Assembly (NCBI GenBank): GCA_963716175.1
Contig: OY970296.1
Coordinates: 3,008,001-3,072,000 of the forward strand
DNA length: 64,000 nucleotides
Origin: an uncultured Armatimonadetes bacterium
Lineage (GTDB): Bacteria; Armatimonadota; Hebobacteria; Hebobacterales; Hebobacteraceae
Reading direction: 5' to 3'
Position 1 is the first letter of the stretch. Each line of letters starts with the position of its first letter. The notes under the pieces are model-generated. The model saw only the letters and a program-made list of their open reading frames with translations, was not told the origin of the DNA and ran no database searches. Made by a program: the position numbers and the translations under genes. Positions 21,118-36,273 of the stretch are shown here, piece by piece.

Positions 21118-21193
21118 CGCACATTCCCCCTAGTACAGCAGTACCGGGCCCCCTCGAAAGTGACGATGGCCAGAACTAGCGGCCCGTGGTCCG

Positions 21194-21222
21194 ATTGTAC
21201 CTCGGCCCCGGGCTCAATGCAA
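21194..21222 (-). promoter_or_regulatory. Sigma70-type promoter of the first SLH gene
   Basis: TTGCAT-17bp-TACAAT on the minus strand. Confidence 0.5.
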
Positions 21223-21294
21223 CCGCCCAGCCCGCCCTTGCGCCTCGCTGAGACAGGCTGAAGGCTACACTACTCGCCATCTACCCGCAACCGC

Positions 21295-23901
21295 TCACAC
21301 CGGCAACTCGAACGCTCTCGCGATATACACCGCCATCTGGTCGCGAGTCACGGGATTGGTAGGCTGGTAGGTGCCGTTGTCATATCCCTTGACCACGTCG
21401 TGATCCACGCAGGCCTTGATCGCCACGCCCGACCAGTAGCCGGCCGGCACATCTGGGAAGAGCTGCGGGGCGGTGTTGAGGGCGTCGCTGAGCTTGACCC
21501 ATCCCTTCGCCCGGGCGATGAACACCGCCATCTGACCGCGATCCACCACCAGCGTGGGCTCGTAGTGAGTGGCGTCATACCCCTGTACCACGCCCTGGGC
21601 CACCGCGTACTCGACATACTTGTAGGCCCAGAAATCAGTAGGGACATCATCGGGGAAGCTGGCGGTGGCCGGCCCTGTGGGCACGTTGGCATCACCCCCG
21701 GCCAGAGCGCGGGAGATGTAGACCGCCATCTGGTCGCGGGTGACCGCCACTTCAGGATGGTAGGTGCCATCGGGATAGCCTAGCGCGATGCTGGCGTTAG
21801 ACACGGCCTCGATGGCGCCGAAGGCCCAGAACTGATACCCCGCGTCCGTGAACTTGTCCTCCGCAAGCGCCGCCGCCACATCCTTCACTACGATTGTCTG
21901 GTTCACGGCGATGTCGTAGTGAATGACCACCGTGCCGTCCGGGAAGCGCACCCGCACCGCCACTGGCCCATCAGTAGGGATGCCGAACTGCGCCACCTGC
22001 TCGCTCTCAGCGCAGAAGCCGGACCCGCCGTCGATGAGCCGAGTCAGGGTGTGGCCAGGCGGGAAACTGGCGTCGTTGTCCACGTTCAACTCGACCCGTG
22101 CGCCGATGGCGTCACGCGTGGGTTTGCTGGTGTCAGTGGTATCACCGGCGGCACTGGTGATAGCGCGCAGCCGCAGCCAGTTGTCGCTAGTGCCGATGTT
22201 GTGGAAGAGCCAAGATGGCGTATCGTAGAGCGCTTGTACCACATCCACGCGACCGTCAAGATTAACGTCGGCCCACGCAACCCCGCCGCTGGCGCCCTGG
22301 TGATCAACGTCGAGGCCCGACCCGGCCACCATGTTCGTGAATGTGCCATTACCGTTGTTGTGGTAGAGAAACGGCTGCTGACCAAAGTTGCCAACGAACA
22401 GGTCAAGGTAACCGTCGTTATCGTAATCAGCCCAGGCCGCGCCCTGCGCGTTGTAGGCGTCGCCTGCCATGCCGGCAACGTTGGCGACGTCAGTGAACGT
22501 GCCATTGTGGTCGTTGTGGAAGAGCCAGTCGGGCGCTGATTCGCCGCTCGTGAAATAGCAGTCAAGCCAGCCGTCGTTATCGTAGTCTCCCCAGATCGCG
22601 CTTAGTGTGTTCACCGGAATGGTTACTCCGGCCTGAGCACTCACATCGGTGTAGGTTCCGTCACCGTTGTTATGAAAAAGCATGGCTGGTTTGTACATGC
22701 GAGCGAGAAGCAGATCGGGGTGGCCATCGTTGTCGTAGTCGCCCCAGGCGGCCGATTGGACGGCATCAGCTCCCCCCAGACCGGCAGCTGCAGCAATATC
22801 GGTGAAGGTGCCATCACCATTGTTCCGCAGCAGATAGGCGTTCCCGAAAATGTTGCACACAAAAGCATCCAGCAGGCCGTCGCCGTTGAAGTCGCACCAC
22901 GACACGCTGCTGCCGGCATTGAACGCCACATGCAGGCCGGCATCGGCGCCGAGCTCCACGAACTGAGACGGATCGCGACGGAATAGCCACGGGTAGGCAT
23001 CGCCACCAACCAGGACATCAAGGAGGCCGTCGTTGTTGTAGTCGCCCCACGCAACCCCAGAGTCTGGCGCGGGTGCAGTGGGGAGTTTCAGCGTTTGGCT
23101 CACGTCAGCGAATGTGAGATCATGGCCATTGCGAAAGAGCATTGGTCCGTGTTGGGGATGGGAAGTCCCCTGATCGTAGCCCCCAAAGAACAAGTCCGGG
23201 TACCCGCCGCTGTCATAGTCACCCCAGCCAACACCAACCGAGTTTGGGAGGTTAAGCCCGGTGACTTGCTCGAACTGCGGCCCTGCCTTGACTGGCAGTT
23301 GCGCCAGCGAGAAGTCTTGCGTCGCGGTCTGCCCCGACACCACCGCCACACCCGTCGCGCTCCCCCACTTGTGGCCTCCGGCGGCCGCGCCGACGCGATA
23401 GCCCGTGCCCACAGGGACGTTGGCGAGGGTATAGCTGCCATCGACACTAGTGGTCGCGCTCAGCGCGCCGCAGGTGACATGCGCCCACTGGATGGGCAAG
23501 CCGCTGGCCCCGTCCGTGACCCGGCCCACGATAGAGCCAAAGGCGGTCGGCGACAGCGAGAAGTCCACCGTGCTGATCTCGCCCTCGACCACCGCGACGG
23601 TGCTGGCCGAAGACGGGGTGTGATCCGGAGCGCTGGCGGCAACCGTGTAGCTCCCGATGCCCAGGTCTGAGAACCCGTACCGGCCCCTGGCATCCGTGGT
23701 TGCGGTGAGGCTGCCACAGGACATAGCTGCCCCGCCGATGGGCAGTCGGGTAGCCGAATCCGACACCACCCCTGCGATGGCGCCAGTGGGGGTTACCGCC
23801 AGGGCCAGCTTCAGCGCGGCACCGTCGGCCTGGCAGGCCACTGCGAAGAGAGAAATGAGAAACGCCAGCACGATAGCAGGGACAGCCGTTCTTCGGGCCA
23901 T
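21295..23901 (-). CDS. Secreted carboxypeptidase-regulatory-like/FG-GAP/ASPIC-UnbV/SLH protein (paralog of 17098-21117)
   Basis: Signal peptide MARRTAV..., WGDYDNDG repeats, SLH triplet nearly identical to the neighbour; start chosen from the shared 5' leader. Confidence 0.85.
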   Translation of the reverse strand: MARRTAVPAIVLAFLISLFAVACQADGAALKLALAVTPTGAIAGVVSDSATRLPIGGAAMSCGSLTATTDARGRYGFSDLGIGSYTVAASAPDHTPSSASTVAVVEGEISTVDFSLSPTAFGSIVGRVTDGASGLPIQWAHVTCGALSATTSVDGSYTLANVPVGTGYRVGAAAGGHKWGSATGVAVVSGQTATQDFSLAQLPVKAGPQFEQVTGLNLPNSVGVGWGDYDSGGYPDLFFGGYDQGTSHPQHGPMLFRNGHDLTFADVSQTLKLPTAPAPDSGVAWGDYNNDGLLDVLVGGDAYPWLFRRDPSQFVELGADAGLHVAFNAGSSVSWCDFNGDGLLDAFVCNIFGNAYLLRNNGDGTFTDIAAAAGLGGADAVQSAAWGDYDNDGHPDLLLARMYKPAMLFHNNGDGTYTDVSAQAGVTIPVNTLSAIWGDYDNDGWLDCYFTSGESAPDWLFHNDHNGTFTDVANVAGMAGDAYNAQGAAWADYDNDGYLDLFVGNFGQQPFLYHNNGNGTFTNMVAGSGLDVDHQGASGGVAWADVNLDGRVDVVQALYDTPSWLFHNIGTSDNWLRLRAITSAAGDTTDTSKPTRDAIGARVELNVDNDASFPPGHTLTRLIDGGSGFCAESEQVAQFGIPTDGPVAVRVRFPDGTVVIHYDIAVNQTIVVKDVAAALAEDKFTDAGYQFWAFGAIEAVSNASIALGYPDGTYHPEVAVTRDQMAVYISRALAGGDANVPTGPATASFPDDVPTDFWAYKYVEYAVAQGVVQGYDATHYEPTLVVDRGQMAVFIARAKGWVKLSDALNTAPQLFPDVPAGYWSGVAIKACVDHDVVKGYDNGTYQPTNPVTRDQMAVYIARAFELPV

Positions 23902-23956
23902 CGCACACCCCCCTGATGCAGCAATACCGGACCCCCTCGAAGCGGCCCGTGGCGAC

Positions 23957-23985
23957 AGTATAGCGCGGCGCCAGGTGTAGGACAA
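23957..23985 (-). promoter_or_regulatory. Sigma70-type promoter of the second SLH gene
   Basis: TTGTCC-17bp-TATACT on the minus strand. Confidence 0.5.
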
Positions 23986-24169: not shown

Positions 24170-25093
24170 CTAGCCTGGCTGATCGCCTGCCGGCCCGAGC
24201 ATCCCCTCCAGCTTCTCGACGGCGGCCAGCTTGGTGCGCACATCCGAGTGCAGGTATCTCGCCGTCGTCCCGATGTCCGCGTGCCCCAGCAGCTCCTGCA
24301 CCGTGCGGATGTCGGCGCCCGAGCGGATGAGGTGGGTGGCAAAGGTATGGCGGAGTTTGTGGGGGGTAATGCCTTTGCCCGCGAGCCCGGCTTTGCCGAG
24401 CGTGCGCGCCAGCATCCGGCTGATGGCTCTGCCGGAGATGGGCTGGCCGAACTGGCTCACAAAGAGCCGGTGGCTGTCCGTCCTCTTGCGCTGGCGCAGG
24501 TACTGCTCGATGGCCGCAACGGCCTGCTCTGCCAGAGGCACCACTCTCTCCTTCGCCCCTTTGCCGTGTACCAGCAGTTGCCGGTTCTCCAGGTCCAGAT
24601 CCTCCAGGCTGATCTGGGCGATCTCGCTGCGCCGCATGCCCGTGGAGAGCAGCAGCACCACCAAGCACTTGTGCCAGGGCCGCTGGGCTGCCTGCAGGAG
24701 TCGCTGGGCATCTGCTTCCGTGAGCGTCACGGGCACCTGCTGTTCCAGTCTGGGCAGAGGCAGCCTGCGGGCGGGATTGCCCGAGACATGGCCCATGTCC
24801 TGGAGGAAGCCAAAGAAGGAGGACAACACCCAGAGCTTCCGTCTCACCGTCAGGGGTGCTCGATCTGCCAGGCTCACCGCGAACTGCATCACCTGCTGGC
24901 GCGTGATCTGATCGGGAGGGGGCGGCTGACCCAGGCGCTGGGAGAGGAACTCCGAGAAGGCCCGCAGGTCGCGGCGGTACGCCTTGACGGAGATGGGAGC
25001 GCAGCTGCGATAGCCCCTCAGGTACTCCAGGAACATCGCCACCGCCTCCTCGAAGGAGAGCGTGCCGGCCTCGGCGTCGTGGGTAGCGGTCAC
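24170..25093 (-). CDS. Tyrosine recombinase, XerC/D-like (copy 2)
   Basis: GMRRSE, HGKGAK, PHKLRHTFAT, LLGH, RY catalytic set; GTG start overlaps the upstream TGA (GTGA). Confidence 0.9.
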   Translation of the reverse strand: MTATHDAEAGTLSFEEAVAMFLEYLRGYRSCAPISVKAYRRDLRAFSEFLSQRLGQPPPPDQITRQQVMQFAVSLADRAPLTVRRKLWVLSSFFGFLQDMGHVSGNPARRLPLPRLEQQVPVTLTEADAQRLLQAAQRPWHKCLVVLLLSTGMRRSEIAQISLEDLDLENRQLLVHGKGAKERVVPLAEQAVAAIEQYLRQRKRTDSHRLFVSQFGQPISGRAISRMLARTLGKAGLAGKGITPHKLRHTFATHLIRSGADIRTVQELLGHADIGTTARYLHSDVRTKLAAVEKLEGMLGPAGDQPG

Positions 25094-26055
25094 GGCTGTG
25101 CTCCCTCCTCTCTCTGCGGAACACTCTCCCCGAGCAGACCCGTCAGCCTTCCTACTGCCGCCAGCTTCGTGCGCACATCCGAGTGCAGGTACCGCGCCGT
25201 CGTCCCCAGATCGGCATGGCCCAGGAGCTCCTGCACGGTGCGCACATCCACGCCCTTGTGGATGAGCTGGGTAGCGAAGGTGTGGCGCAGCTTGTGAGGG
25301 GTAATCCCCTGGCCCGCCAGCCCCGCCTTCTCCAGCACCTGGTCCAGCATGGCGTTGACCACGTGGCCTCGGATGGGCTGTCCACGGGAGTTCACAAAGA
25401 GCCGCCGGCTCTGGGTGCGGGGCCGGTGGGGCAGGTACTGCTGGATGGCCGCCACGGCCTGACGGGTGAGGGGGACGATCCGCTGCTTGGCTCCCTTCCC
25501 GTGCACCAGCAGTTGCCGGTTGGTCAGGTCCACCTCCTCCAGGCTGATCAGCACCGCCTCGCTTCTGCGCAGGCCCGTCGCCAGCAGCAGCATGATGAGG
25601 CACCGATGCCAGGGCAGTTCGGCCGCCGCCAGCAGTTGCTGCGCCTGCTCCTCTGAGAGCGTCACCGGGATGTGCTGCTCCAGCTTCGGGAGGGGTAGTC
25701 TCTTGGCGGGATTGCCCTGGACATAGCCCATATCCTGAAGGAAGCCGAAGAAGGAGGAGAGACAGGCCAGCTTGCTGCGCACCGTGATCGGGGACCAGTG
25801 CGACAAGGAGACCGCGTACTGAATCACCAGCTGGCGGGTGATCGCAGCCGGAGCTGGCAGCGGCCCGGGTTGCGAGGAGAGGAACTGCTGGAAGTTGCGC
25901 AGGGTCGTGGCGTAGGCTCGGACAGAGGCAGGAGCGCAGCTGCGGTAGCTCCGCAGGTACTCCAGGAACATCGGCACCGCCTGCTCCAAGGGGAGCTCGT
26001 CCCCGGTGGAGGGCGGTGCGGCACGGGCCGCTTCGGCCTGGGCGAGAGTGGTCAT
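25090..26055 (-). CDS. Tyrosine recombinase, XerC/D-like (copy 1)
   Basis: GLRRSE, HGKGAK, PHKLRHTFAT, LLGH, RY; GGAGG RBS before ATG 26055. Confidence 0.9.
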   Translation of the reverse strand: MTTLAQAEAARAAPPSTGDELPLEQAVPMFLEYLRSYRSCAPASVRAYATTLRNFQQFLSSQPGPLPAPAAITRQLVIQYAVSLSHWSPITVRSKLACLSSFFGFLQDMGYVQGNPAKRLPLPKLEQHIPVTLSEEQAQQLLAAAELPWHRCLIMLLLATGLRRSEAVLISLEEVDLTNRQLLVHGKGAKQRIVPLTRQAVAAIQQYLPHRPRTQSRRLFVNSRGQPIRGHVVNAMLDQVLEKAGLAGQGITPHKLRHTFATQLIHKGVDVRTVQELLGHADLGTTARYLHSDVRTKLAAVGRLTGLLGESVPQREEGAQP

Positions 26056-26216
26056 GCACGCCTCCTCTGGTGGATGGTTGCGGCATGACATGAATCACTT
26101 CAAGCGGCGAACAAGTCCAGGCCTTTGTGCAAGTATTCTGTGGGGTGGGCCCTAGTGCGGGTATTTCGTATCCCCTCGATTTCGGGCCAGGATGGCTCTA
26201 GGAGCCACGAGAAGAG

Positions 26217-26610
26217 TGGAGTGGGCCGATAAGCCGAGTTTTGGCGCGACATTCGCCCGATACGTCAGGTTATGTCGCGAGCGTCCATCTATCTAGGGCT
26301 GCGATCGCTCGCAGCCTCAAGCGGCCAACCCGGGGCTGATGCGGCGTCGGGCCAACGCTGGTCCCCAACCGGGGACTCGCCCCCTATTTGGCCTTGCTCC
26401 GGGCGGGGTTTGGCCAGCCGGTGTGTCTCCACGCCGCTGGTGCGCTCTTACCGCACCATTTCACCCTTGCCCAGCTCGCGCCGGGCGGTATGTTTCTGTG
26501 CCACTTTCCGTCGGGTCGCCCCGCCTGGGCGTTACCCAGCGCCCTGCCCTGTGGAGCTCGGACTTTCCTCGTTCCGCCATCGGCGAACCGCGGACGCTTG
26601 GCCCACTCCA
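26217..26610 (-). ncRNA. rnpB: RNase P RNA (bacterial type A-like)
   Basis: GAGGAAAGTCCGAGCTCC near the 5' end, GGAAAGTGGCACAGAAA, GGTAAGAGCGCACC, AAAACTCGGCTTAT near the 3' end; P1 TGGAGTGGGCC/GGCCCACTCCA. Confidence 0.95.
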
Positions 26611-26615
26611 TCTCC

Positions 26616-26624
26616 ATTCTACCA
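26616..26624 (-). promoter_or_regulatory. Extended -10 promoter of rnpB
   Basis: TGGTAGAAT (TGn-TAGAAT) just upstream of the P1 start. Confidence 0.55.
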
Positions 26625-27081
26625 CATGCTCGGCGTCTCCGCGCCAACCGGCCGCACTGTCCTCGCCAGAGCATGTCTCACTTCCCGGAGCAGGTGCCAC
26701 GCGCCTCGGATGTGACCGTCTATGGCTGCCCAGGCGGCCTAGCACAGTTGATGCAGGGTATGCGGGGCGTGATTCTCACAGCGGCCACGGAACCGATGCA
26801 GGTGGAGATGTAAGGCCGTTGTCATCCGCGCGCGACATGAATGCTGGCCCGCGTACACCCCGCGCGGACTGATCCCGCCGTCACCACGGGCGAATCATGC
26901 CGGTGGCATTGACCGCGAGTTCCGGCCTGCACATTTCGGTCGACCGGGATGCGAAGGCGGCTAGACTTCTTCACCCATCGAAACTGGTTGATTCCACGAT
27001 CTGCTGAAAGCCGCTGAACAAGTCCGGGTGTGCCCCTCACCCGGCAGCAAGCTGTTTTCGTCGGCAAACATGACAGTCAAT

Positions 27082-27262
27082 CGGTAGGCTGAGTTCTGGC
27101 GCGAACGTCCTGCCCTGTGGACCTCGGACTTTCCTCAGCCGCCTCTCGGCGACCGCGGACGCCTGGCCCACTCCATCTGCATACCACCATGATGCTCGGC
27201 ATGGTCGCGCTGACCAGCCGCACGACCCTTGTTAACATGAGTCTCCCCCGCCCTGGAGCAGG
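27082..27262 (-). repeat. Internally deleted rnpB copy A (mini-rnpB 27082-27175) plus homologous upstream region
   Basis: GGAGTGGGCCAGGCGTCCGCGG...GAGGAAAGTCCGAGGTCCACAGGGCAGG joined directly to a 3'-end-like GCGCCAGAACTCAGCCTACCG; ~85 bp upstream resembles 26611-26695. Confidence 0.85.
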
Positions 27263-27282
27263 ATACGGGTACACAACGTACC

Positions 27283-27311
27283 TTGACAGGTCATGTCGAT
27301 ATGACTATCAT
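27283..27311 (+). promoter_or_regulatory. Promoter and operator of the TA operon
   Basis: TTGACA-17bp-TATCAT with palindrome GTCAT-N6-ATGAC in the spacer. Confidence 0.75.
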
Positions 27312-27340
27312 GGTCTCGTAGGGGAAAGGCAAGGAGCGCC

Positions 27341-27631
27341 ATGAGAACCGCAGCCATCTCCCGTCTGAAGGCCAAGCTTAGCGAGCACATCGCGTGGGTC
27401 AAGCGCGGGGAGGAGGTCCTGGTGACCGAACGCGGGAAGCCGGTCGCGCGCATCGTGCCGGTGGCCCCGGGGACAGCGGGTGACGACCGAATGCCGGGGC
27501 TGATCGCTCGAGGCATCGTGCGATTGGGGAAGAAGCAGCTCCGCAAGGCGCTCTCGGATTTGCCCGTCTGCAGGGTGCCGAAAGGAGCAGTGCTGCGCGC
27601 TCTGGACGACGAAAGGCAGGACCGAGCATGA
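27341..27631 (+). CDS. Phd/YefM-family antitoxin
   Basis: LKAKLSEHIAWVKRGEEVLVTERGKPVARIVP; ATGA overlap with the toxin. Confidence 0.9.
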   Translation: MRTAAISRLKAKLSEHIAWVKRGEEVLVTERGKPVARIVPVAPGTAGDDRMPGLIARGIVRLGKKQLRKALSDLPVCRVPKGAVLRALDDERQDRA

Positions 27632-28059
27632 GGTGGTGGGATACCTCAGCCCTGTTGTCTCTGTTGCTGCAACAGGAGACGACTGACGAGCTCAAGGCGC
27701 TGCTCGCGTCAGACGACACTCTCGTAGTGTGGTGGGGCACAAAGGTGGAGGCAGTCTCTGCCGTGTCCCGGCTGCAGCGCGATGGCTATACTGAGTCCCG
27801 CGTCAGCGCTCGCCTGTTCAAGCACCTAGATGGCCTGCTGTCAGCGGCCTACGAAGTGCAGCCGCTGGAAGAGGTCCGCGCCACGGCCTGCCGAGCGCTT
27901 CGCGTCCATGAACTGCGCGCCGCGGACGCGCTGCAGTTAGCAGCAGCCCTCGTTTGGGCAGAGCACCATCCCACAGGATTAGGCTTCGTGTGCCTGGACC
28001 GCAGGCTTCGCGAGGCAGCCACGCGCGAGGGATTTGAGGTACTGCCCGAATCGTCGTGA
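27628..28059 (+). CDS. vapC: VapC-family PIN toxin
   Basis: WDTSAL, LRAADALQLAAA, FVCLDRRL..AA..EG. Confidence 0.9.
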   Translation: MRWWDTSALLSLLLQQETTDELKALLASDDTLVVWWGTKVEAVSAVSRLQRDGYTESRVSARLFKHLDGLLSAAYEVQPLEEVRATACRALRVHELRAADALQLAAALVWAEHHPTGLGFVCLDRRLREAATREGFEVLPESS

Positions 28060-28127
28060 GCGCACTGCCGCGGGTGGAAGTGAACGCCAACGTAGACAGC
28101 CGGTCTCTCGTCGCTTAGTCGCTGAAT

Positions 28128-28302
28128 CGGTAGGCCGAGTTTCGTCGCGAGCGCCCTGCCCTGTGGAGCTCGGACTCTCCTCGGCTGCCACAAGCGGCGA
28201 CTGCGGACGCTTGGCCCACTCCATTGGGATTGCAGCACATTCCGAGCGCGCGGTCCTCCGCTAACCCGCTGCCAATGGGCCCGTCGCACTCCAGGCGGTG
28301 CC
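28128..28302 (-). repeat. Internally deleted rnpB copy B (mini-rnpB 28128-28223) plus weakly homologous upstream region
   Basis: GGAGTGGGCCAAGCGTCCGC...GAGGAGAGTCCGAGCTCCACAGGGCAGGGCGCT joined to CGCGACGAAACTCGGCCTACCG. Confidence 0.85.
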
Positions 28303-28509
28303 GAAGCACCTACCGGCGATTATGGAACTCAAGTGCATCTGGGGAGACTGGGAGGTTCTCCACTGCCGGGCTCGGCGCCGTCTGACACCCGGAATGTGCT
28401 CCTGTGTGACAGTGGGGGCAGGCACTTGGCCGACGGCAGCGAATCTGCGCGGCAGCGCAATGAAGCTGGGTTTCGTGCGGTTGCGGGTCTCCGGCTGGGA
28501 GGGCCTCCG

Positions 28510-31500
28510 GTGAGCCTGCGCAGGATCGGCGACTACACGATCACCCGAGAGCTGGGACGCGGGGGCATGGGGACGGTCTACCAAGCGCTCTCAGCAGAGG
28601 GCGCAACGGTGGCCGTCAAGACGGTGGTCTGGCCCGACACCGTAGACCCGCGAGCCCGATGGAATGCGATAGAACGCTTTCAGCGCGAGGCGCGTGCGGC
28701 CCGCTCGCTCAGCCATCCCAACATCTGCCAGGTGCTCGACTTCGGCGCGGACGAGAACAGCCTTTTCCTCGTGATGGAGTTCCTGGATGGGGACACTGTC
28801 CGCCAGCTGATTGACTTGGCGGGGAAGATCGAGCTGGGGCGCGCGGTTCAGATCATGCACGCCGTAGGCGAGGCACTTGCGCATGCGCACGGCAAGGGGA
28901 TCATCCACCGGGATATCAAGCCAGGGAACATCATCGTCCTGCGCAACGGCCAGGTGAAGCTGACCGACTTCGGCCTGGCCTTCGTCGTCCACGAGACGCG
29001 CGTCACCGGAACGGGCGAAACCATGGGCACGCTGTTCTACCTGCCTCCTGAGCAAGTGCGGGGAGACAGAGTTGATGCGCGCTCGGACATATTCTCACTG
29101 GGTGCCACCTTCTACGAGATGGCGACCGGCGCCCCTCCCTTCCAGGCCGGGAGCCCCGCCGCGGTGATGCACCAGATCCTGACCAGGGATCCGCCGCCGG
29201 CGAAGGAGCTGCCCGAGAGTGCTTGCCGTATCCTCGAGAAGTGTCTCCGGAAGGATCCGCGGGAGCGATTCCAGAGTGCACGGGAGATGGTCGAGTCCTT
29301 GCGCGTGTTGGAGGGAGACGCCGCCCTCGTCGCCACGGCGGTGTTGCCCAAGGTAGAGTCGAAGGCGGCGGGCCGCCGCTGGCGAGGTCCGCTGCAACTG
29401 CTCCGGGCACTGAGAGGGTGGCGTGCCGTAGCGGCGGCCGCAGCCGTGCTGGCCGTTGGCGCCATAGCGCTGTTTAGAGCTGAGACCAGATCCCGCGGTC
29501 GGCCAATGACTGCCGCGGTCTCAGCTACAGAGCCCGGAGTGGTTGCCAGATTCCCTCCCAGCCTGAGGCCGCTCCGGCGAGGGCTGGTCGCCACCTATCT
29601 ATACGGTGGCGCGGGCCGCGTAGGGGGCATTGCGGTGCGAGCAGATGGCACTGTCCTCGTGACGGTTGGATCCGGCGACTCAGTTCCCCCTGGAGTATAC
29701 GTGGCTCGGGAGGGCGATGGCTGCGACCCAGGCGACGCCTACACAGAGCCGGGGAAGCCCTTTGTCGAGCCGATGGGTATTGCGGTTGGTCCGGATGGCC
29801 GGGTCCTGGTGGCCGACAGGGGGGCCTCGACCGTGTGGATGATCGCCGCGCCCGGCGCTCGTGCACAGGTGCTGACTCAGAGCATCCCCAGCCCTTGTGA
29901 TGTGTTGATTGCGCCTCCTGGTTTCCACGGTCCCAACGTGGACCCGGGAGACCTGCTGGTCTGCGCCAGCCGTTCTGCCCAGCCAGAGCGGTTCGGGCTG
30001 TACGTCGTGGACCGGAAGACCTCGGGCGTTCACCCTCTCGCCGGGCCTCCCGAACTCCAGGACGGGCTGCTTTACGCGGCGTTCGGGCCTGACGGCACCC
30101 TCTACGCCGTCGAAGACGACAGCAGCCAGGACGGCTACACCATCGTGACCATATCTCCCGAGGGCCGCTGCACCCGGATCGTTGGCAACCTGTGGCAGGA
30201 CTTCACCCCCTTCCCGCACACCGGACCCATCGCCGTACAGCCGGTGACGGGTCAGGTGTTCTTTGCCTACCACTCGACCATCTACCGCCTCGCGGCTGAC
30301 CGCGGGACGCCTGAAAAGTACGCCGTCGGGGGCCTGGAGATCACAGCTCTCGAGTTCAGCCCCGATGGCTCTGCTCTTCTTGCCAGCGATGCAAATGCCC
30401 GTGTCGTGGCGAAGATCGGGCCCTATCCGGTTGAAGGCAAACTGCTCGTGGCCGGCTGGTCTCAGACCACCCCCAAGAGAGAGGAGCCGGGGAGCGAGGA
30501 GTTCTGTTACGTGCTGGAGGGGCGGTCGGACAAGAAGGTCGTGGTCCCTGTTCGGCCGGGAGGCGATCTGTCACCTCTAGGCGCCGAGGTGGTCTATGAG
30601 TCCGAGAACGACTACCCCGGTGACAAGCCCTGGCGAAAGCGCTGCCACATCCTGAGGACCGATCTCGGCGGCCACAAGAAGGCCAATCTGACTGAGTCCA
30701 TAGGCGTGCGGGCGATCAACTGCTGTCCGCTGTGGTCACCGGACGGGTACAAGATCTCCTTCCTTCACTGTGATCCGGTCGAGGGTGTCAAGCCTTGTGA
30801 GACAGGCCTGGAAATATGGGTGATGAACGCTGATGGCACGGCACCACGGCGAGTGGCCCGGCCTGATGCCACAGCAGGGTTGGGGTCGCAGTCATTCCCG
30901 GAACGCTGGTGGTCGGTCAACGGGGACCGTGTCATCTACCGGTACGGCCACCAGGGTCAGGTCGTGAGCGTTGACCTGGACGGGACGGGCCGACAGATGC
31001 TGCCGATCTTCTCCGGCAACTTCTCGCCGGATGGATCGAGGATCGTGGACGAACGAACCAAGCCAGACGTCGTGAATGGAGAGCCGGGAGTATGGCGCCA
31101 GCTCTCCCTCACCGATGCCGATGGTGCCCACCCGCGGGTTCTACTTCAGCACTTCGTGAGCGACTCCGATGTGGCGAAGAACCTGCACGTGGCCAACGTT
31201 GACCTGCAGAACCCACGGTGGGCCAATGACGTCCGGGAGTGGGTCGGCCCGAAACGGGTCAAGTGGTCGCCCGATGGCAAACGCGTGGCCTTCCTGGCGG
31301 CGCTGCCCTTCGAGCCAGCCGGCAATACCTACTACTTCCAGGTCGAAGCCTGGATCTACGATCTCGCGACCGGCATCCTCGTCAGGCTCACAGACAACAC
31401 GGACGCAGAGAACAGCCTCAGCTGGCGTGGTCCCAACACCCATCCTGACCGCCCGCGAGTGACCGTTGGCAATACCACTGTGGCCTTCGCCGAAGTCACG

Positions 31501-31809
31501 AAGGCGGGCCTGACGACTGTGACCCAGGATGGCCATCCGCCGGCAGAGCCCGGCGGGTACCGCTTCTGCGGCGACTACTACCACATGAAGACCACCGCGC
31601 GATACCGCGGACCGGTCAAGATAGCTATGGCATATGCGGACAAGGACGTACCAGGTGGCGATGAGCGTGCCCTCGCCATCCTCCGCTACTCTGAGGGAAG
31701 CGGGAAGTGGGAGGACATCACTACCTCACGCGATACCAAGGCCAACGTCGTCACCGGGCAGGTTGACTCGATCGAGACTGGTCCCCCTCCTCGCGGGGGC
31801 CCACCGTGA
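28510..31809 (+). CDS. Membrane Ser/Thr protein kinase with extracellular NHL/TolB-like propellers
   Basis: LGRGGMGTVY, AVK, HRDIKPGN, DFG, YLPPE; one TM segment; WSPDG repeats. Confidence 0.9.
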   Translation: MSLRRIGDYTITRELGRGGMGTVYQALSAEGATVAVKTVVWPDTVDPRARWNAIERFQREARAARSLSHPNICQVLDFGADENSLFLVMEFLDGDTVRQLIDLAGKIELGRAVQIMHAVGEALAHAHGKGIIHRDIKPGNIIVLRNGQVKLTDFGLAFVVHETRVTGTGETMGTLFYLPPEQVRGDRVDARSDIFSLGATFYEMATGAPPFQAGSPAAVMHQILTRDPPPAKELPESACRILEKCLRKDPRERFQSAREMVESLRVLEGDAALVATAVLPKVESKAAGRRWRGPLQLLRALRGWRAVAAAAAVLAVGAIALFRAETRSRGRPMTAAVSATEPGVVARFPPSLRPLRRGLVATYLYGGAGRVGGIAVRADGTVLVTVGSGDSVPPGVYVAREGDGCDPGDAYTEPGKPFVEPMGIAVGPDGRVLVADRGASTVWMIAAPGARAQVLTQSIPSPCDVLIAPPGFHGPNVDPGDLLVCASRSAQPERFGLYVVDRKTSGVHPLAGPPELQDGLLYAAFGPDGTLYAVEDDSSQDGYTIVTISPEGRCTRIVGNLWQDFTPFPHTGPIAVQPVTGQVFFAYHSTIYRLAADRGTPEKYAVGGLEITALEFSPDGSALLASDANARVVAKIGPYPVEGKLLVAGWSQTTPKREEPGSEEFCYVLEGRSDKKVVVPVRPGGDLSPLGAEVVYESENDYPGDKPWRKRCHILRTDLGGHKKANLTESIGVRAINCCPLWSPDGYKISFLHCDPVEGVKPCETGLEIWVMNADGTAPRRVARPDATAGLGSQSFPERWWSVNGDRVIYRYGHQGQVVSVDLDGTGRQMLPIFSGNFSPDGSRIVDERTKPDVVNGEPGVWRQLSLTDADGAHPRVLLQHFVSDSDVAKNLHVANVDLQNPRWANDVREWVGPKRVKWSPDGKRVAFLAALPFEPAGNTYYFQVEAWIYDLATGILVRLTDNTDAENSLSWRGPNTHPDRPRVTVGNTTVAFAEVTKAGLTTVTQDGHPPAEPGGYRFCGDYYHMKTTARYRGPVKIAMAYADKDVPGGDERALAILRYSEGSGKWEDITTSRDTKANVVTGQVDSIETGPPPRGGPP

Positions 31810-31900
31810 GGCTCGCCGCAAACGGCAAGGTAGGTCGCGTTCAGGGGTTCGGCGGCCTATGCCGCCAGTTGGCCCCGGCAAAAGGCGCGCTACCCCATCA

Positions 31901-33022
31901 TTAGGCGAGGATCTCCCTCAACCGCCGCGCTGTACAATGAGCCCAGGGCCCGTGAGGCGGACAGCCCTGGAGAAGCACCGTCGCCAGCCCGTGGTAGACC
32001 AGGTAATCGAAATCGGCGCCGGCGTGTTCCTCTATCTGCTGGTGAATCCCGAACGCGGCCTCCGCAAGGCCCAGCCTGCCGAGCGCGCAAGGCCCGGGAA
32101 CGTCCTCCTGCCCCCCCGGGTATCCCCATAGCTTGCGCGGGCGCTGCGCTATGACGGGTTCCACAGCCAACCACACCTGCTGATTCACGCTCGCCGCATA
32201 CTCTCCACCGTAGTCCCTCAGGGCTCTGAGGCTATGGCCCAACTCGTACAGCGCTCCGTATTGGCGCTCGGCCTTGTCCAGCTTCTCCAGGTCGTCCGGG
32301 CCGATGCCCAGGCTCTCCCGGTAGTCCTCCAGCAGCTCCCTGGCGGCAGCGCTGTTCATGTGGTTGTCGTACTCAGTGGTGTACTGCTCAGCCTTGCTCC
32401 GCACTTGGTACCAGTTAAGGTCTGGCTGCTGTGCGATCAGGTGAAGCTTGTCCACCTCGTCCTTGGTGATAGCGCAGTCGGAGGCGTGGTTCATGAGTTC
32501 ACCTGCCTGCCAGAGCATCATCGCCCAGAGGGGCGGCCGACGCACCTCGGTCGCCTCCTGAGTTCCTCCCATCACCTGACACTGCTGGCTATCATCGAAC
32601 CATTGCGTGAGATCGGCCAGCAAGAGACGACCATGGAGCCTGGTGGTGTGGAATCTGATCAAGAGGTCGGGCTCCCCGCTCTCGCTTGCCCAGCACCGCT
32701 CCACGTAGAATGGCTCGGGGGTCACCGGTATCTTCAGGAGGGCCCTTTTCGCCTGCTGCGGATCCAGAGGGCGACAGCGCCCGGCCTGGGGGGGGTCGTA
32801 CATGGCCGGCACATAGCCTCCTTGATCCATCGCCTGCATGAAAGGATCGAGCTGCTCATGGCGGATCAGCAACTGCAGGTCATCCGAGAGCGTCATCCCC
32901 CATGGTTGCCAGGAGTCAAGCGCTACGTCTCCGACGTACAGCACGTCCACCTTCGCGCGCCTGAGCACGTCAACTAGGCCACGCGCCATCGCGCACTTCA
33001 CCTGCCTCATGTCCGCTGGCAT
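31901..33022 (-). CDS. Hypothetical protein, possibly a divergent nucleotidyltransferase-like fold
   Basis: 373-aa ORF; VLYVGDVAL...SDDLQLLI loosely resembles the G..A...D.D motif of NTP_transf_5 proteins. Confidence 0.45.
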   Translation of the reverse strand: MPADMRQVKCAMARGLVDVLRRAKVDVLYVGDVALDSWQPWGMTLSDDLQLLIRHEQLDPFMQAMDQGGYVPAMYDPPQAGRCRPLDPQQAKRALLKIPVTPEPFYVERCWASESGEPDLLIRFHTTRLHGRLLLADLTQWFDDSQQCQVMGGTQEATEVRRPPLWAMMLWQAGELMNHASDCAITKDEVDKLHLIAQQPDLNWYQVRSKAEQYTTEYDNHMNSAAARELLEDYRESLGIGPDDLEKLDKAERQYGALYELGHSLRALRDYGGEYAASVNQQVWLAVEPVIAQRPRKLWGYPGGQEDVPGPCALGRLGLAEAAFGIHQQIEEHAGADFDYLVYHGLATVLLQGCPPHGPWAHCTARRLREILA

Positions 33023-33592
33023 CTGCGCCTCTTTCGCCTCCGAATTGCATTATGGGTGCACACCCGAGGCGGTGGGTCGGAAACGGGAGCATCGAGGAGG
33101 TCCCATGGCACCAGTGACGGCAGCACGGGATGAGACCTGACCGGACTTGCATCCGCGCCCTCGGGGCGAGCCGTCGGGGGAACACCATCCAGCGAGGAAG
33201 CCGCGCGCGAATCCGGTCCCCGCAGGCCCGCTCGCCTCGGCACGAGCTGAAGACGCATCACGCCCCCCCGCGAGGTGCTCACGAGAGCGATCGGAATGCG
33301 TCAGCGGGATTGGGTTGCACCTCGGCCCGGTAAGTCTACACGGCTTGCCATCCCCAAGTCAAGTGCAAGTCGGCACGGCAGTTGTGTCGCTGGGCAGCAT
33401 GATTCGCCATGGCGAGCATGTCCCACCATGCCGCCTCCGTACACTTGCCCATGCTGGTCAGCAGGTCGCTGAACTGCCTCCCGCCAGGCTGCCCCAGTTC
33501 GCTGTTAGCGAGCGCCTCGCCCCTCGCAGGTCGGCCCAAGCCCCCCGCCCGTCACGGCACCGGAAACGGCGCGGAAATCCCACTGCGCCCTC

Positions 33593-33620
33593 TTGACATG
33601 CCGGCTACCTGTGGTATCAT
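33593..33620 (+). promoter_or_regulatory. Promoter of the padR operon
   Basis: TTGACA-16bp-TATCAT with TG extension; imperfect palindrome ACGA..TCGT downstream. Confidence 0.55.
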
Positions 33621-33659
33621 GTGATACGAGACGATATATTACGCGTCGTTATAGAGCGG

Positions 33660-34352
33660 ATGCGACAGGAACATCCAACAACTCTCGAGTACGCTATCCT
33701 GGGCCTGATCGGGATCTCCCCGGCGACCGGCTACGACATCCATAAGGTCTTCGCCACGACGCCTCTGGCGCACTTCAGCTCCAGTCCCGGGGCGATCTAC
33801 CCCGCACTGCGCCGCCTCGGCCAGCGCGGCTTGCTGGCAGCTCAGTTGGACAGGACGATAGAGGCGCGGCCCCGCCGCGTGTACGCTCTCACCAAGGCCG
33901 GCAGGGAGCATCTCGTCTCCTGGCTTCGGCAGGCTGTCACCCGGGAGGAGCTGATCCGCGGTGCTGGGGCTCCCATCCTTCGTTTCGCTCTGGCCGAGGG
34001 ACGGGTCGCCAAACGGGAGGTCCTCGCATACCTCGGCAGCTATCGGCGCGCGCTTGAGTCCTACCTCGAAGAGCTCCACGAGTACAGTCGGAGAATGCAC
34101 GCCGATGCAGGGCTTCACCCGCGCCTCGCCCTCGAACACGGGATGCGTGGCTACCAGGGCGAGCTAGACTGGGTCGAGTCGGCCATCTTACAGATCAAAC
34201 GCGCACGCCGCAGCTCCTCGCAGCGGCGGGAGTCGCGCCCAAGACCGGAACGCACAGGAGGCGATGATGCTGCAGGGACTGTCGCGAAGCATGCTGAGCA
34301 TTTGTCTCGTGTTGGTGCTGTTCTCCGGCATCGCCGTCGCGGCCGGGGGTGA
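33660..34352 (+). CDS. PadR-family transcriptional regulator
   Basis: LEYAILGL...TGYDI...SPGAIYPALRRL...RRVYALTKAG; the C-terminal tail overlaps the next gene. Confidence 0.85.
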   Translation: MRQEHPTTLEYAILGLIGISPATGYDIHKVFATTPLAHFSSSPGAIYPALRRLGQRGLLAAQLDRTIEARPRRVYALTKAGREHLVSWLRQAVTREELIRGAGAPILRFALAEGRVAKREVLAYLGSYRRALESYLEELHEYSRRMHADAGLHPRLALEHGMRGYQGELDWVESAILQIKRARRSSSQRRESRPRPERTGGDDAAGTVAKHAEHLSRVGAVLRHRRRGRG

Positions 34353-35326
34353 AGGCCAAGTGGCTGCGCCGCAGCCATCCCCGGGCGAGTCGAAGATCTG
34401 GGGCTGGTGGACCCTGGTGCCCTGGGACGGCCGCCCAGTCGGAGCGTCGGCCTGGGCTGATGTCCTCAACCAGGCCTTCGACCTCACGCGCAAAGGGAAG
34501 GCTGGCGAGCAGCACCGTTATCAGATCAAGCGCACCAACCTCACGGTGGACCGCCAAGGGAAGGTCGTCGGCCGCATGACCGCCGAGGCCCAGCTTGCCC
34601 GCACGCTTCTCCGCGAAGCCGAGCCCGGCGTCTGGCTGGAGCGCTGTGAGTGGGAGCGTTTCGCCGTAGCCCAGGGCATGGGCCCGGACGACTACCCGAA
34701 GCCTCAGGAGCTGCCAGGCGGCCGGGGCATCTCCTACGAGTTCTCACCTCGCACCTTCGACTACGTCAACCCGCCCGCCGACTTCGCGCGCGTCGGCGAC
34801 GAGGTCGGCGGCTACCTGCTCAAGGTTCTCACTATGGACGCCATGGGCTGGGACGCGATCCTCCGCGCGCTTGGCGATGAGTTCAGGGGCGGAGTCCGCA
34901 TCGGCGACACCTGGCGCCACACCGAGTTCGAGCCCTGGGATATCACGCGGGTCGGCAGTGAGGGCCTCGATAGGCCGGTACCACGCGGGTGAGATGCAAG
35001 TTGGCGTCGTCGGCCTGACCCGTTTCGGCGGCGAGCCCTGCGTGCTCATCTGGCTCTCGATGGAGGGCAACAAGGTGAGCCAGAATATCGCCACTCCGCA
35101 GTTCTCCATGAACATGCAGAGTACCGAGTACTTCCGCGGCGAGCTTGCCGCCTCTCTTCTCGACGGCCGCCTCGTCTCCATGGAGCTGTGGGGCTCCTTG
35201 CCCTGCGTCATGGAGATGGGCTTCGGGGGCCAGCCTCCCACCGAGCAGCCCATCGGCGCCATCGTCCAGCAGGTTAGCATGTGGGAGATCGCGGCTACTC
35301 CACAGACCAAGACATCCGGGCAGTAG
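34264..35326 (+). CDS. Secreted hypothetical protein, split by a frameshift near 34968
   Basis: Signal peptide; ORF 34264-34992 continues plausibly in the frame ending at 35326. Confidence 0.55.
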
Positions 35327-35358
35327 GATCATAGCGTCACCATCAGTCCGCCGCGCAG

Positions 35359-35472
35359 TGTCGCGACGGCCCATCTCTCCAGGGCGCAGTTGCCTGCAGC
35401 CTCGAGCAGCCTGGAGCTGATTCGGCCCGGGGCCAGCGCCGCGAGAACGCCTCAAGCAGGACTGCTCCGAGC
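35359..35472 (-). repeat. Degenerate fragment of the rnpB 3' region (copy C)
   Basis: tgtcgcga-cggcccatctctccagggc...gcagcctcgagcagcc...gctgattcggc aligns with 26273-26360 (tgtcgcga-gcgtccatctatctagggc...gcagcctcaagcggcc...gctgatgcggc). Confidence 0.7.
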
Positions 35473-35514
35473 CGCGCCGAACCTCGCGCCCGATCGCGGC
35501 CCCGGAGGAAACAC

Positions 35515-36273
35515 ATGAAAGGCGTTGTGCTCGCGGGTGGACTGGGCACCCGGCTCTACCCGCTGACCAAGGCAACCAACAAGCACCTGCTCCCGGTCTA
35601 CGACCGGTGCATGGTGCACTATGCCATTGGCAATCTTGTTCGGGCCGGGATTACCCACGTCATTGTGGTAACTGGTGGCCCCCATGCCGGCGATTTCGTC
35701 CGTGTCCTGGGGAATGGCAAGGGTCTCGGTGTCGAGCACCTGGAATACGGCTATCAGGAGGGGGAGGGCGGGATCGCCGAGGCCCTGGGCGTGACCGAGG
35801 ATTTCGCCGAAGGCGGCCCAGTGATGGTGGTGTTGGGCGACAACTTCACCGACGCCGACCTCGGCCCCGCCGTGCGCGGGTTCAAGTCCGGCGCGCACCT
35901 CTTCTTGAAGCAGGTCCCTGACCCCAGGGACTACGGAGTGGCGGTGTTCGACGAGAACGACCCCTCGCGCATCGTCCGCATCGAGGAAAAGCCGAAGCAG
36001 CCCAAGAGCAACTACGCCGTGACCGGCTTCTACATCTACGACCGCCGCGCCTTCGACTACATCCGCCAGTCCGAGCCCTCCGCCCGCGGCGAGCTTGAGA
36101 TCACCACCGTCAATAACTTCTACATTCGGGATGGCCTTATGACCTGGAGCGAGCTGGATGGCCTCTGGCTCGACTGCGGGTCCTTCGAGGGCCTGTTCGA
36201 GGCCAATCGCGTGGTGGCCGACGCCCGCCGCAAGGGCGAAAAGCGCTTCCTCCCGCAGGTGGAACCAGGGTAG
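35515..36273 (+). CDS. Sugar-phosphate nucleotidyltransferase (RmlA/SpsI-like)
   Basis: GVVLAGGLGTRLYPLT, KHLLPVYD, EEKP, RGELEIT. Confidence 0.9.
   Translation: MKGVVLAGGLGTRLYPLTKATNKHLLPVYDRCMVHYAIGNLVRAGITHVIVVTGGPHAGDFVRVLGNGKGLGVEHLEYGYQEGEGGIAEALGVTEDFAEGGPVMVVLGDNFTDADLGPAVRGFKSGAHLFLKQVPDPRDYGVAVFDENDPSRIVRIEEKPKQPKSNYAVTGFYIYDRRAFDYIRQSEPSARGELEITTVNNFYIRDGLMTWSELDGLWLDCGSFEGLFEANRVVADARRKGEKRFLPQVEPG

Follow-up and report, generated by a model that had tools for sequence, protein, structure and literature searches.

The region analysed here, hereafter the window, is a stretch of 64,000 nucleotides from an uncultured Armatimonadetes bacterium (positions 3,008,001–3,072,000 of one 4.56-Mb contig, to which genome coordinates below refer), and its central element is rnpB, the gene for RNase P RNA. 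Comparison with related genomes indicated that rnpB is an integration target for one clade of Xer-like tyrosine recombinases, with a chain of islands at its 3′ end (downstream) and a stack of decaying rnpB copies, separated by cargo genes, on its 5′ side (upstream). We tentatively propose, with somewhat less than even confidence, that the locus is a two-sided capture platform on a ribozyme gene: one Xer-like integrase family would use an overlap in helix P4 of the RNA from both sides, and cassettes carrying a promoter and 95% of the RNase P RNA would take over on insertion and become irreversible after decay of the displaced copy, a form of addiction by gene replacement without a toxin.

The intact class A rnpB lies at 26214–26609 on the minus strand (Rfam RF00010, 282.9 bits), and a genome-wide search showed that it is the only full-length copy in the source genome. 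RNase P is essential; because the source genome contains rnpA and no protein-only RNase P above cut-off, rnpB is taken to be essential here. The 3′ core of the gene (23 bp, 26216–26238, minus strand) consists of the 6-bp overlap CTCGGC (26233–26238), which is the 3′ strand of the catalytic helix P4, and of an arm forming the 3′ strand of helix P1; the position of the overlap within the core is deduced from the start of identity and the register of the arms. The intact gene also contains an extra hairpin before the P4 3′ strand (26244–26278, minus strand) that is missing from most family alleles in the alignment. In the notation used below, O is the overlap, with arms of about 14 bp on either side: B is the arm in the rnpB body, B′ the arm at the rnpB 3′ end, P the far-end arm of the islands and P′ the arm carried by the relics. 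A relic, or displaced copy, is an upstream rnpB copy that ends in P′ instead of its own 3′ end. G000 is the source genome, other G numbers are genomes of relatives, L numbers are loci or contigs, and X numbers are contigs of public sequencing runs.

Directly downstream of rnpB, two Xer-like tyrosine recombinases are encoded on the minus strand, the first at 25090–26055 (Pfam Phage_integrase, E 6e-44) and the second at 24170–25093 (E 1e-48; PF00589 and PF02899). They are 69% identical to each other, and both have the R-K-H-R-H-Y catalytic motifs. The closest NCBIfam models are XerC and XerD, both below cut-off (236 vs 335 bits, the XerC score of the second recombinase, and 214 vs 330 bits), and no arm-binding domain was found in the Pfam scan of the recombinases. 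A 642-aa open reading frame (ORF; 24170–26098) was discarded as merely an open frame running upstream of the second recombinase. Examination of 26 integrase loci (16 with the core, two untestable and eight of a sister clade without it) showed that the rnpB core lies 163–706 bp upstream of all 16 testable clade integrases (at least 59.7% identity) in seven family genomes. The first-pass annotation had suggested that rnpB is an integration target at which DNA accretes, and had named recombinase–rnpB linkage and variable cargo in relatives as checks; the linkage is kept at all 16 testable loci, and the cargo does vary. The core was found at none of the eight more distant sister-clade loci, one of which has just 39 bp of upstream DNA. 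Close relatives of the integrase occur in 11 of 15 family genomes and, among 301 genomes of the phylum, in one more outside the family; most have a single integrase rather than a pair. Core matches numbered 29 in 13 of the 15 family genomes, comprising six intact rnpB ends and 23 with a non-rnpB left arm. A quick integrase tree did not place the rnpB-linked proteins on one side of a branch: four changes were counted, two of them forced by strong branches.

Dif-like palindromes, whose right half resembles the rnpB end, were found at five sister-clade loci and on viral contig L160. Such sites occur three times in the source genome (G000:C1:794796, 809850 and 2113226), far from the GC-skew maximum, and that of L160 (L160:6145) is situated between a terminase large subunit gene and the integrase gene. 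The L160 integrase, a member of the sister clade, is the best relative among viral contigs (54%); the arm pattern gave one match in viral contigs, by chance. Searches of phage and plasmid collections returned conserved-core rnpB matches alone (70–78%), none of them from the source lineage. One Microcystis phage record (MW495066.1, 274 kb) has an unannotated rnpB-like match at 115323–115518 (70% over 45% of the query).

Exact copies of the terminal 23 bp of rnpB are present at genome 2961801, 2877111 and 2843633; at up to three mismatches, the genome contains no others. The distances between successive cores are 72,437, 84,690 and 33,478 bp. Two of the three copies are followed by the recombinase pair at 92–95% identity, 72 and 190 kb from the window pair (first recombinase, 94–95% at 2961618 and 2843449; second, 92% at 2960659 and 2842490), and the third by a single 61% relative of the first recombinase (2876768); a 90% copy of the pair occurs in another genus. 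Because the pair and the 23-bp core recur at island junctions, the window pair is the left end of a 72-kb island, E1, with the core of the intact rnpB as its left attachment site. E1 and the further downstream islands E2 and E3 each end in TerS, ParB-methylase and TerL genes, the rest being variable cargo (glycosyltransferases, RHS proteins and insertion sequences). The island cargo scan covered 111 proteins by Pfam and 50 by PHROGs, of 170 called in 2.76–3.01 Mb, and no capsid or portal match was found among the 50 island proteins scanned with PHROGs. Homologues of TerS and the methylase adjoin junctions in G011; for the island TerL there was no match at E 1e-30 in the five relatives searched. 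Read from its sequence, the downstream chain is the known island mechanism, a tandem with 3′-end duplication, acting on an unreported target, rnpB. An end junction for a fourth island was considered and rejected, there being no fifth core at up to three mismatches. An inverted P arm and overlap with a degenerate right half are present 46 kb past the last exact core, at genome 2797394 (G000:C1:2797340–2797410, plus strand), and may be the flipped or decayed end of a fourth island.

All rnpB pieces of the window are on the minus strand, with the relics upstream of the intact gene and the recombinases downstream. The gene order and orientation given by the first-pass annotation were confirmed by Rfam, Pfam and blastn. 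Mini A (27074–27174; blastn against the whole genome, E 7e-24; 22.3 bits with a profile of relics) has a mutated overlap at 27088–27093 and a 14-bp element arm at 27074–27087 replacing the P1 3′ strand. Mini B (28120–28222; E 6.5e-19; 16.6 bits) has its overlap at 28134–28139 and its arm at 28120–28133. In both, the rnpB 5′ end (P1 5′ strand, P2, P3 and P4 5′ strand) is joined to the 3′ end (P2 and P4 3′ strands) across the same deletion of about 290 nt, which sits at a 10-nt near-direct repeat, and the P1 3′ strand is absent. Circular permutation of rnpB was ruled out, since the minis run 5′ then 3′ around an internal deletion. Fragment C (35341–35441), the most decayed displaced rnpB (a 3′ part and a damaged arm), forms the outer end of the upstream array. 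Its match to rnpB alone was weak (blastn E 1e-4, 72% over 86 columns; nhmmer E 0.059). The relic profile, trained on 15 broken rnpB copies from other genomes and contigs, gave 30.8 bits at 35342–35441 (E 7e-7 genome-wide), and the best of 30 shuffled 64-kb windows reached 10.0 bits; the significance of this fragment against shuffled sequence, which the annotation had asked for, is thus upheld. The decay of relics rises outward in the source genome. Public sequencing runs from different studies yielded contigs that cross mini B (X1, 27867–28477, 0 differences, possibly from the source sample; X4, 27771–28334, 17 differences) and fragment C (X3, 34999–35621, 19 differences), and the layout is therefore not an assembly artefact.

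Relics in relatives range from near-full rnpB copies to short remains, and their deletion end points differ between genomes. They leave rnpB at CTCGGC and continue in the conserved 14-bp non-rnpB arm P′, with the consensus TTACCGATTGACTG. When broken copies were chosen by rnpB homology alone, 12 of 13 were found to break at the overlap, the miss being a second match in L151. Arm columns 1–14 are conserved (G at column 14 in 12 of the 12 arms reaching it), and column 15 falls to 0.04 bits. Reverse-complemented P arms from 23 island junctions (21 distinct arms; related genomes are not independent, and one genus is weaker, at 6–8) agreed with the P′ consensus, when aligned in register, at 8.05 of 14 positions and at no more than 4.5 at ten other shifts; shuffling gave 3.5, with a maximum of 4.95 in 2000 shuffles. 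The arm that closes the relics is thus the inverted counterpart of P across the 6-bp overlap. As P′ is the inverted repeat of P around the overlap, a P-O-P′ junction was predicted, and it was then found in metagenome contig L145, where it is followed 5.7 kb on by an rnpB cut by the contig end. The metagenome scan gave 15 matches on 14 contigs: nine rnpB ends with P′, the one P-O-P′ junction and five chance matches in coding DNA. All four junction types, B-O-B′, P-O-B′, B-O-P′ and P-O-P′, therefore exist as sequences. Displacement is accompanied by loss of pairing: P1 falls from 10 pairs to 4–8, about half of the arms (ten of 21 anchored ones) also alter a P4 base and break a P4 pair, and full-length displaced copies score 238–272 Rfam bits against 279–289 for intact copies. 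Two arrangements of these junctions were also seen. In G011, L110 and L118 carry junctions at opposite contig ends and on opposite strands, with identical 110-bp left arms; in G002:C184 (L036, L116), a plus-strand relic that ends in its arm and a minus-strand P-O-B′ junction point towards each other across 11 kb, the layout that an inversion between two sites has.

Three units lie between the intact gene and fragment C. Unit 1 (26610–27073) is a gene-less spacer between the mini A arm and the rnpB promoter; its first 42 bp are homologous to the post-arm sequence of contig L154, and its last ~110 bp to DNA upstream of mini A. TAGAAT at 26616–26621 is likely, judging by sequence, the −10 box of rnpB; a consensus scan did not pick it up. 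A 10-bp motif of unit 1 (27016–27025, minus strand) recurs before the first recombinase gene (26109–26118, minus strand) and is possibly the relic of an integrase promoter. Unit 2 carries a toxin–antitoxin (TA) pair, a Phd/YefM antitoxin gene (27341–27631, plus strand; PF02604) and a PIN-domain toxin gene (27628–28059, plus strand; PF01850). Homologues of the two (72% and 71%) lie upstream of the intact rnpB of G008, the antitoxin homologue directly so, at the same distance and orientation as the pair has upstream of mini A; PIN toxin fragments are also present after the arm in L154. Unit 3 contains a Ser/Thr kinase gene with NHL and PD40 repeats (28510–31809, plus strand; PF00069), an ORF with no Pfam or PHROG match (31901–33022, minus strand), and padR with a downstream gene in two ORFs (33660–35326, plus strand; PF03551; ORFs at 34264–34992 and 34994–35326). 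In G014, the DNA that precedes a decayed rnpB 5′ piece is homologous to the start of the kinase gene (75% over 328 bp), and the same relic-bearing contig has homologues of the padR block (72% and 69%), ~10 kb from the nearest relic. The two post-padR ORFs (34264–35326, plus strand) match in position one 359-aa ORF of G014 (L097:13210–14286); the window gene after padR is probably split by a frameshift. Outward of fragment C are an rmlA-like gene and then aroC, for which no homologues were found in the family loci examined.

Most relatives are represented by fragmented assemblies that break at rnpB repeats. For each of 23 arms, the DNA as far as the next rnpB or the end of the available sequence (29 to 8000 bp) was free of tyrosine recombinases. 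Cargo of the units in relatives includes repressors, IS21, oxidoreductases and a glycoside hydrolase, and one large serine recombinase follows the arm in L154. Near-full displaced copies, in the same orientation as the restored gene and upstream of it, were found in G011, G007, L147, L151, L152 and L153, the last with two near-full rnpB copies with P′ in tandem. In G011, the near-full displaced rnpB stands beside an M20 peptidase gene that also flanks the unoccupied rnpB of G006 (67.5% over 1120 bp), an intact gene with neither relic nor integrase beside it, and the working rnpB is situated 6.6 kb inward of the displaced copy, behind other cargo and another promoter. The gene downstream of rnpB in G006 was matched in one of the five relatives searched, with no synteny of the native downstream flank. 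A BlaI-type repressor gene precedes the working copy in G011 and the displaced copy in L147. The first 72 columns of the working rnpB of the source genome are 98.6% identical to the working copy of G011, which belongs to another genus, and 81–82% identical to its own minis.

On these observations we lean slightly towards the view that integrase-less units, each made up of an arm, cargo, a promoter and an rnpB body, enter the locus at the overlap and take over from the resident gene, which is pushed aside, and that its decay then locks them in. One Xer-like integrase clade would recombine simple sites in which the overlap is placed between two interchangeable arms. On the downstream side, P-O-B′ islands integrate classically, restoring the 3′ end of rnpB and lining up one behind another, and each brings its integrase or integrases. 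Upstream, integrase-less circles containing P′, cargo, promoter and rnpB body, with the site B-O-P′, would insert at the same overlap, the neighbouring integrase acting in trans. The resident rnpB would have its own 3′ end exchanged for P′ and so lose the P1 3′ strand, and the incoming copy would gain the host 3′ end and become the working gene. Each round would shift older copies outward, where decay would follow, from the near-full copies of relatives through minis A and B to fragment C. Once a displaced copy had lost its ~290-nt middle, excision of the unit would be lethal; as only a dead mini gene would be left, an essential function would hold the cargo in place. Crossovers by RecA within the 370-bp repeats are probably a further means by which units are moved and shuffled. 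An array formed upstream by whole-gene replacement would be a novel form of island with target-gene replacement. The idea in the first-pass annotation that repeated integration at rnpB built the array is supported as to accretion but not as to an integron-like layout. The classical partial duplications are downstream, and the upstream relics are products of another kind, entire displaced genes with an element arm at their end.

Several observations weigh against replacement by inserted units. No free circle, excision joint or empty/filled strain pair was seen, and among the 15 of 48 joints that were listed (contigs of four DNA runs) none lies at the overlap. The bodies of the two G011 copies are identical at 281 of 287 positions, the copies differing in promoter and P3 only (5′ part, 63 of 73), and the pair could represent a local duplication or gene conversion; moreover, of the two P3 versions in G011, the one that resembles G006 less belongs to the displaced copy, which is next to the native gene. 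L147 and L152 share one sequence from mid-rnpB through 1210 bp past the arm and differ 5′ of this stretch, a mosaic that suggests either homologous crossover within rnpB or an assembly chimera. P-O-P′ turned up in a single case and has several possible origins, and relics of G001, G002 and G013 are not assembled beside an intact rnpB. Finally, a displaced gene whose arm retains TT and 8 of 10 P1 pairs may still be functional to begin with.

Another explanation, which we consider unlikely, is that a large P-O-P′ element carrying cargo, a full rnpB, integrase and terminase inserted repeatedly into itself, each insertion producing an upstream relic, a downstream P-O-B′ junction and the next target. 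Such nesting would account for the equal numbers of relics and exact junctions in the source genome (three each), for the co-occurrence of relics with junctions or clade integrases in G000, G001, G002, G005, G011, G013 and G014, and for the absence of both relic and integrase beside the intact rnpB of G006, and L145 does show P-O-P′ followed by cargo and rnpB. However, cargo is unlinked to integrase type, as the TA unit of G008 accompanies a single integrase of another subclade and the kinase unit of G014 accompanies another subclade, and post-arm DNA is unrelated in most units. By hand count, the arm pairing expected from nesting (10 and 8 of 14) is worse than the shifted pairing (11 and 10). 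Counts are also unequal in G011 (one relic, three junctions) and G014 (three relics, one junction), both from incomplete assemblies.

Somewhat less likely again is homologous recombination by itself, with one or a few ancient integrase events creating B-O-P′ and RecA crossovers in the 370-bp repeats spreading, duplicating and exchanging the units since then. The lack of integrases in the units is consistent with this possibility, as are the L147/L152 mosaic, the 98% identical bodies in G011, the promoter-side DNA shared by units 1 and 2, and the post-arm DNA that unit 1 shares with the TA unit of L154. Against it, conservation ends sharply at base 14 of the arm and the next bases are mostly unrelated, which would fit a binding site still in use or numerous junctions of independent origin, and the arm is still in register with present-day P arms.

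It is improbable that the arm is a foreign P1 3′ strand that elements of another lineage carry as an imperfect replacement, or that the relics act as RNAs in their own right (as a second RNase P RNA or as P1–P4 mini RNAs). The rnpB genes of another family in the class do end in a similar string, and many arms keep 7–8 of 10 P1 pairs; yet a scan of 185,579 species genomes, which covered genes with the CTCGGC overlap, found 70 arm-pattern loci, four of them in rnpB context, and none of the four is intact with a matching 5′ strand. Similarly, minis A and B share one deletion and mini A folds better than shuffled sequences (z −2.6), but mini B (z −1.6) and fragment C (z −0.1) fold no better than usual, P4 is mispaired in both minis, and deletion ends differ between genomes, the shared one lying at the near-direct repeat.

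A true integron, in which a stationary pair of recombinases would take up cassettes at attC-like sites derived from rnpB, is very improbable and was rejected, together with the integron-like layout of the first-pass annotation: like integrons, the array has integrase-less units in one orientation beside recombinase genes, with age rising outward, but the integron-integrase models were not reached (TIGR02249, 128 and 105 bits vs 265; NF011946, 91 and 71 vs 435; the C-terminal part alone aligns), a simple-pattern search found no R-box pairs in 26600–35520 (0 vs 0.5 expected), cargo is multi-gene with its own promoter, and each unit ends in an rnpB copy at what appear to be double-stranded simple sites. 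The pair itself belongs to the mobile 72-kb island and is multi-copy, unlike a stationary intI-attI-Pc platform, and most relatives have one integrase.

XerC/XerD dif-type sites have an 11-6-11 layout. The present system resembles XerC/XerD-dif in its best model matches, its 6-bp overlap between inverted arms, its catalytic residues and the lack of an arm-binding domain by Pfam; it differs in that the recombinases are below the cut-offs, mobile and multi-copy, and in that four cores lie at 2.84–3.03 Mb rather than a single dif at the terminus, the cumulative skew maximum being near 3.58 Mb. Phage satellites of the phage-inducible chromosomal island (PICI) type are terminase-bearing islands. 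Like them, E1–E3 combine an integrase with TerS, ParB-methylase and TerL, and the 50 proteins scanned with PHROGs, of 170 called, gave no capsid or portal match; unlike them, E1–E3 are large (33–85 kb) and have both terminase subunits, with no replication module among the ORFs scanned.

Islands in tRNA and tmRNA genes offer the closest comparison for the downstream chain. According to the available text of the Islander paper (PMC4383910), 3760 of 3919 islands have a 3′ fragment and 125 tandems of two or more occur, 159 of the 3919 have a 5′ tRNA gene fragment, and the term 'RNase P' has 0 occurrences in that text. As in the 3′-fragment islands, each of E1–E3 has an integrase, inside the island, beside the restored gene and one displaced 3′ fragment at the far end, in the same orientation and within the 2–200 kb separation that Islander uses. 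The differences are the target rnpB, which falls outside the database definition, the duplicated integrase pair in one subclade and the simple Xer-like sites. By analogy, the 5′-fragment islands are the nearest counterpart of the upstream units, as each unit would bring in the 5′ portion of the target and sits upstream of the restored gene, with the displaced 5′ portion at its far end. However, the upstream units would replace ~370 of 396 nt and the promoter of an essential single-copy ribozyme gene; they have no integrase, which Islander requires, several are stacked, the overlap would be used from both sides, and the displaced copies degenerate through internal deletion.

A search of the accessible literature found no paper in which rnpB serves as an attachment site, although the TIGER database may list such sites unlabelled. 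The nearest case is phage phiEf11, whose attB lies in ffs, the signal recognition particle RNA gene; in the text available (PMC12540744) it is presented as a new RNA target, and tRNA, tmRNA and csRNA are named as the known ones. Both systems use as attB a housekeeping non-coding RNA gene other than those for tRNA and tmRNA, but phiEf11 is one prophage with a 27-nt core, and neither whole-gene replacement, nor a two-sided array, nor rnpB appears in that portion of the paper. In the accessible parts of two other papers (PMC4524478, PMC2516327) rnpB is used as a phylogenetic marker only, and the part of PMC12884075 that was seen does not mention it.

These results extend the list of RNA genes that serve as attachment sites to include rnpB, and do so for an entire bacterial family. 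If the proposed replacement is correct, rnpB alleles and promoters move between genera along with cargo, and cargo would be fixed in a way unlike TA addiction, the cassette owning the sole working copy of an essential gene. A marker treated as single-copy (as in the part of PMC4524478 seen) can then be multi-copy, mosaic and mobile, and second rnpB calls by Rfam at 240–270 bits in family genomes would be displaced copies. Island finders limited to tRNA/tmRNA fragments, or requiring an internal integrase, would miss both arrays. Displaced copies with 4–8 of 10 P1 pairs would also be natural tests of what RNase P needs of P1 and P4 in the cell.

Some further features were noted at rnpB loci and in the window. 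In G036, from another family (L043), a repeat of the rnpB 3′ end occurs 526 bp downstream, with two short genes, and no integrase match, between. In G008 (L047:6595–7064), a HicA gene and a partner lie between rnpB and the integrase gene, which has an internal stop. In G013 (L040:5320–5464), the intact rnpB is followed by a second half-site-like string and an ORF start that, judged by eye and cut by the contig end, resembles a different XerC-like recombinase. Within the window, the first E1 cargo (17098–23985, minus strand) encodes two large FG-GAP/SLH surface proteins whose genes share a 500-bp stretch at 87%. The GC skew is near zero across the arrays and becomes strongly negative beyond ~36 kb (36000–64000), just outside fragment C.

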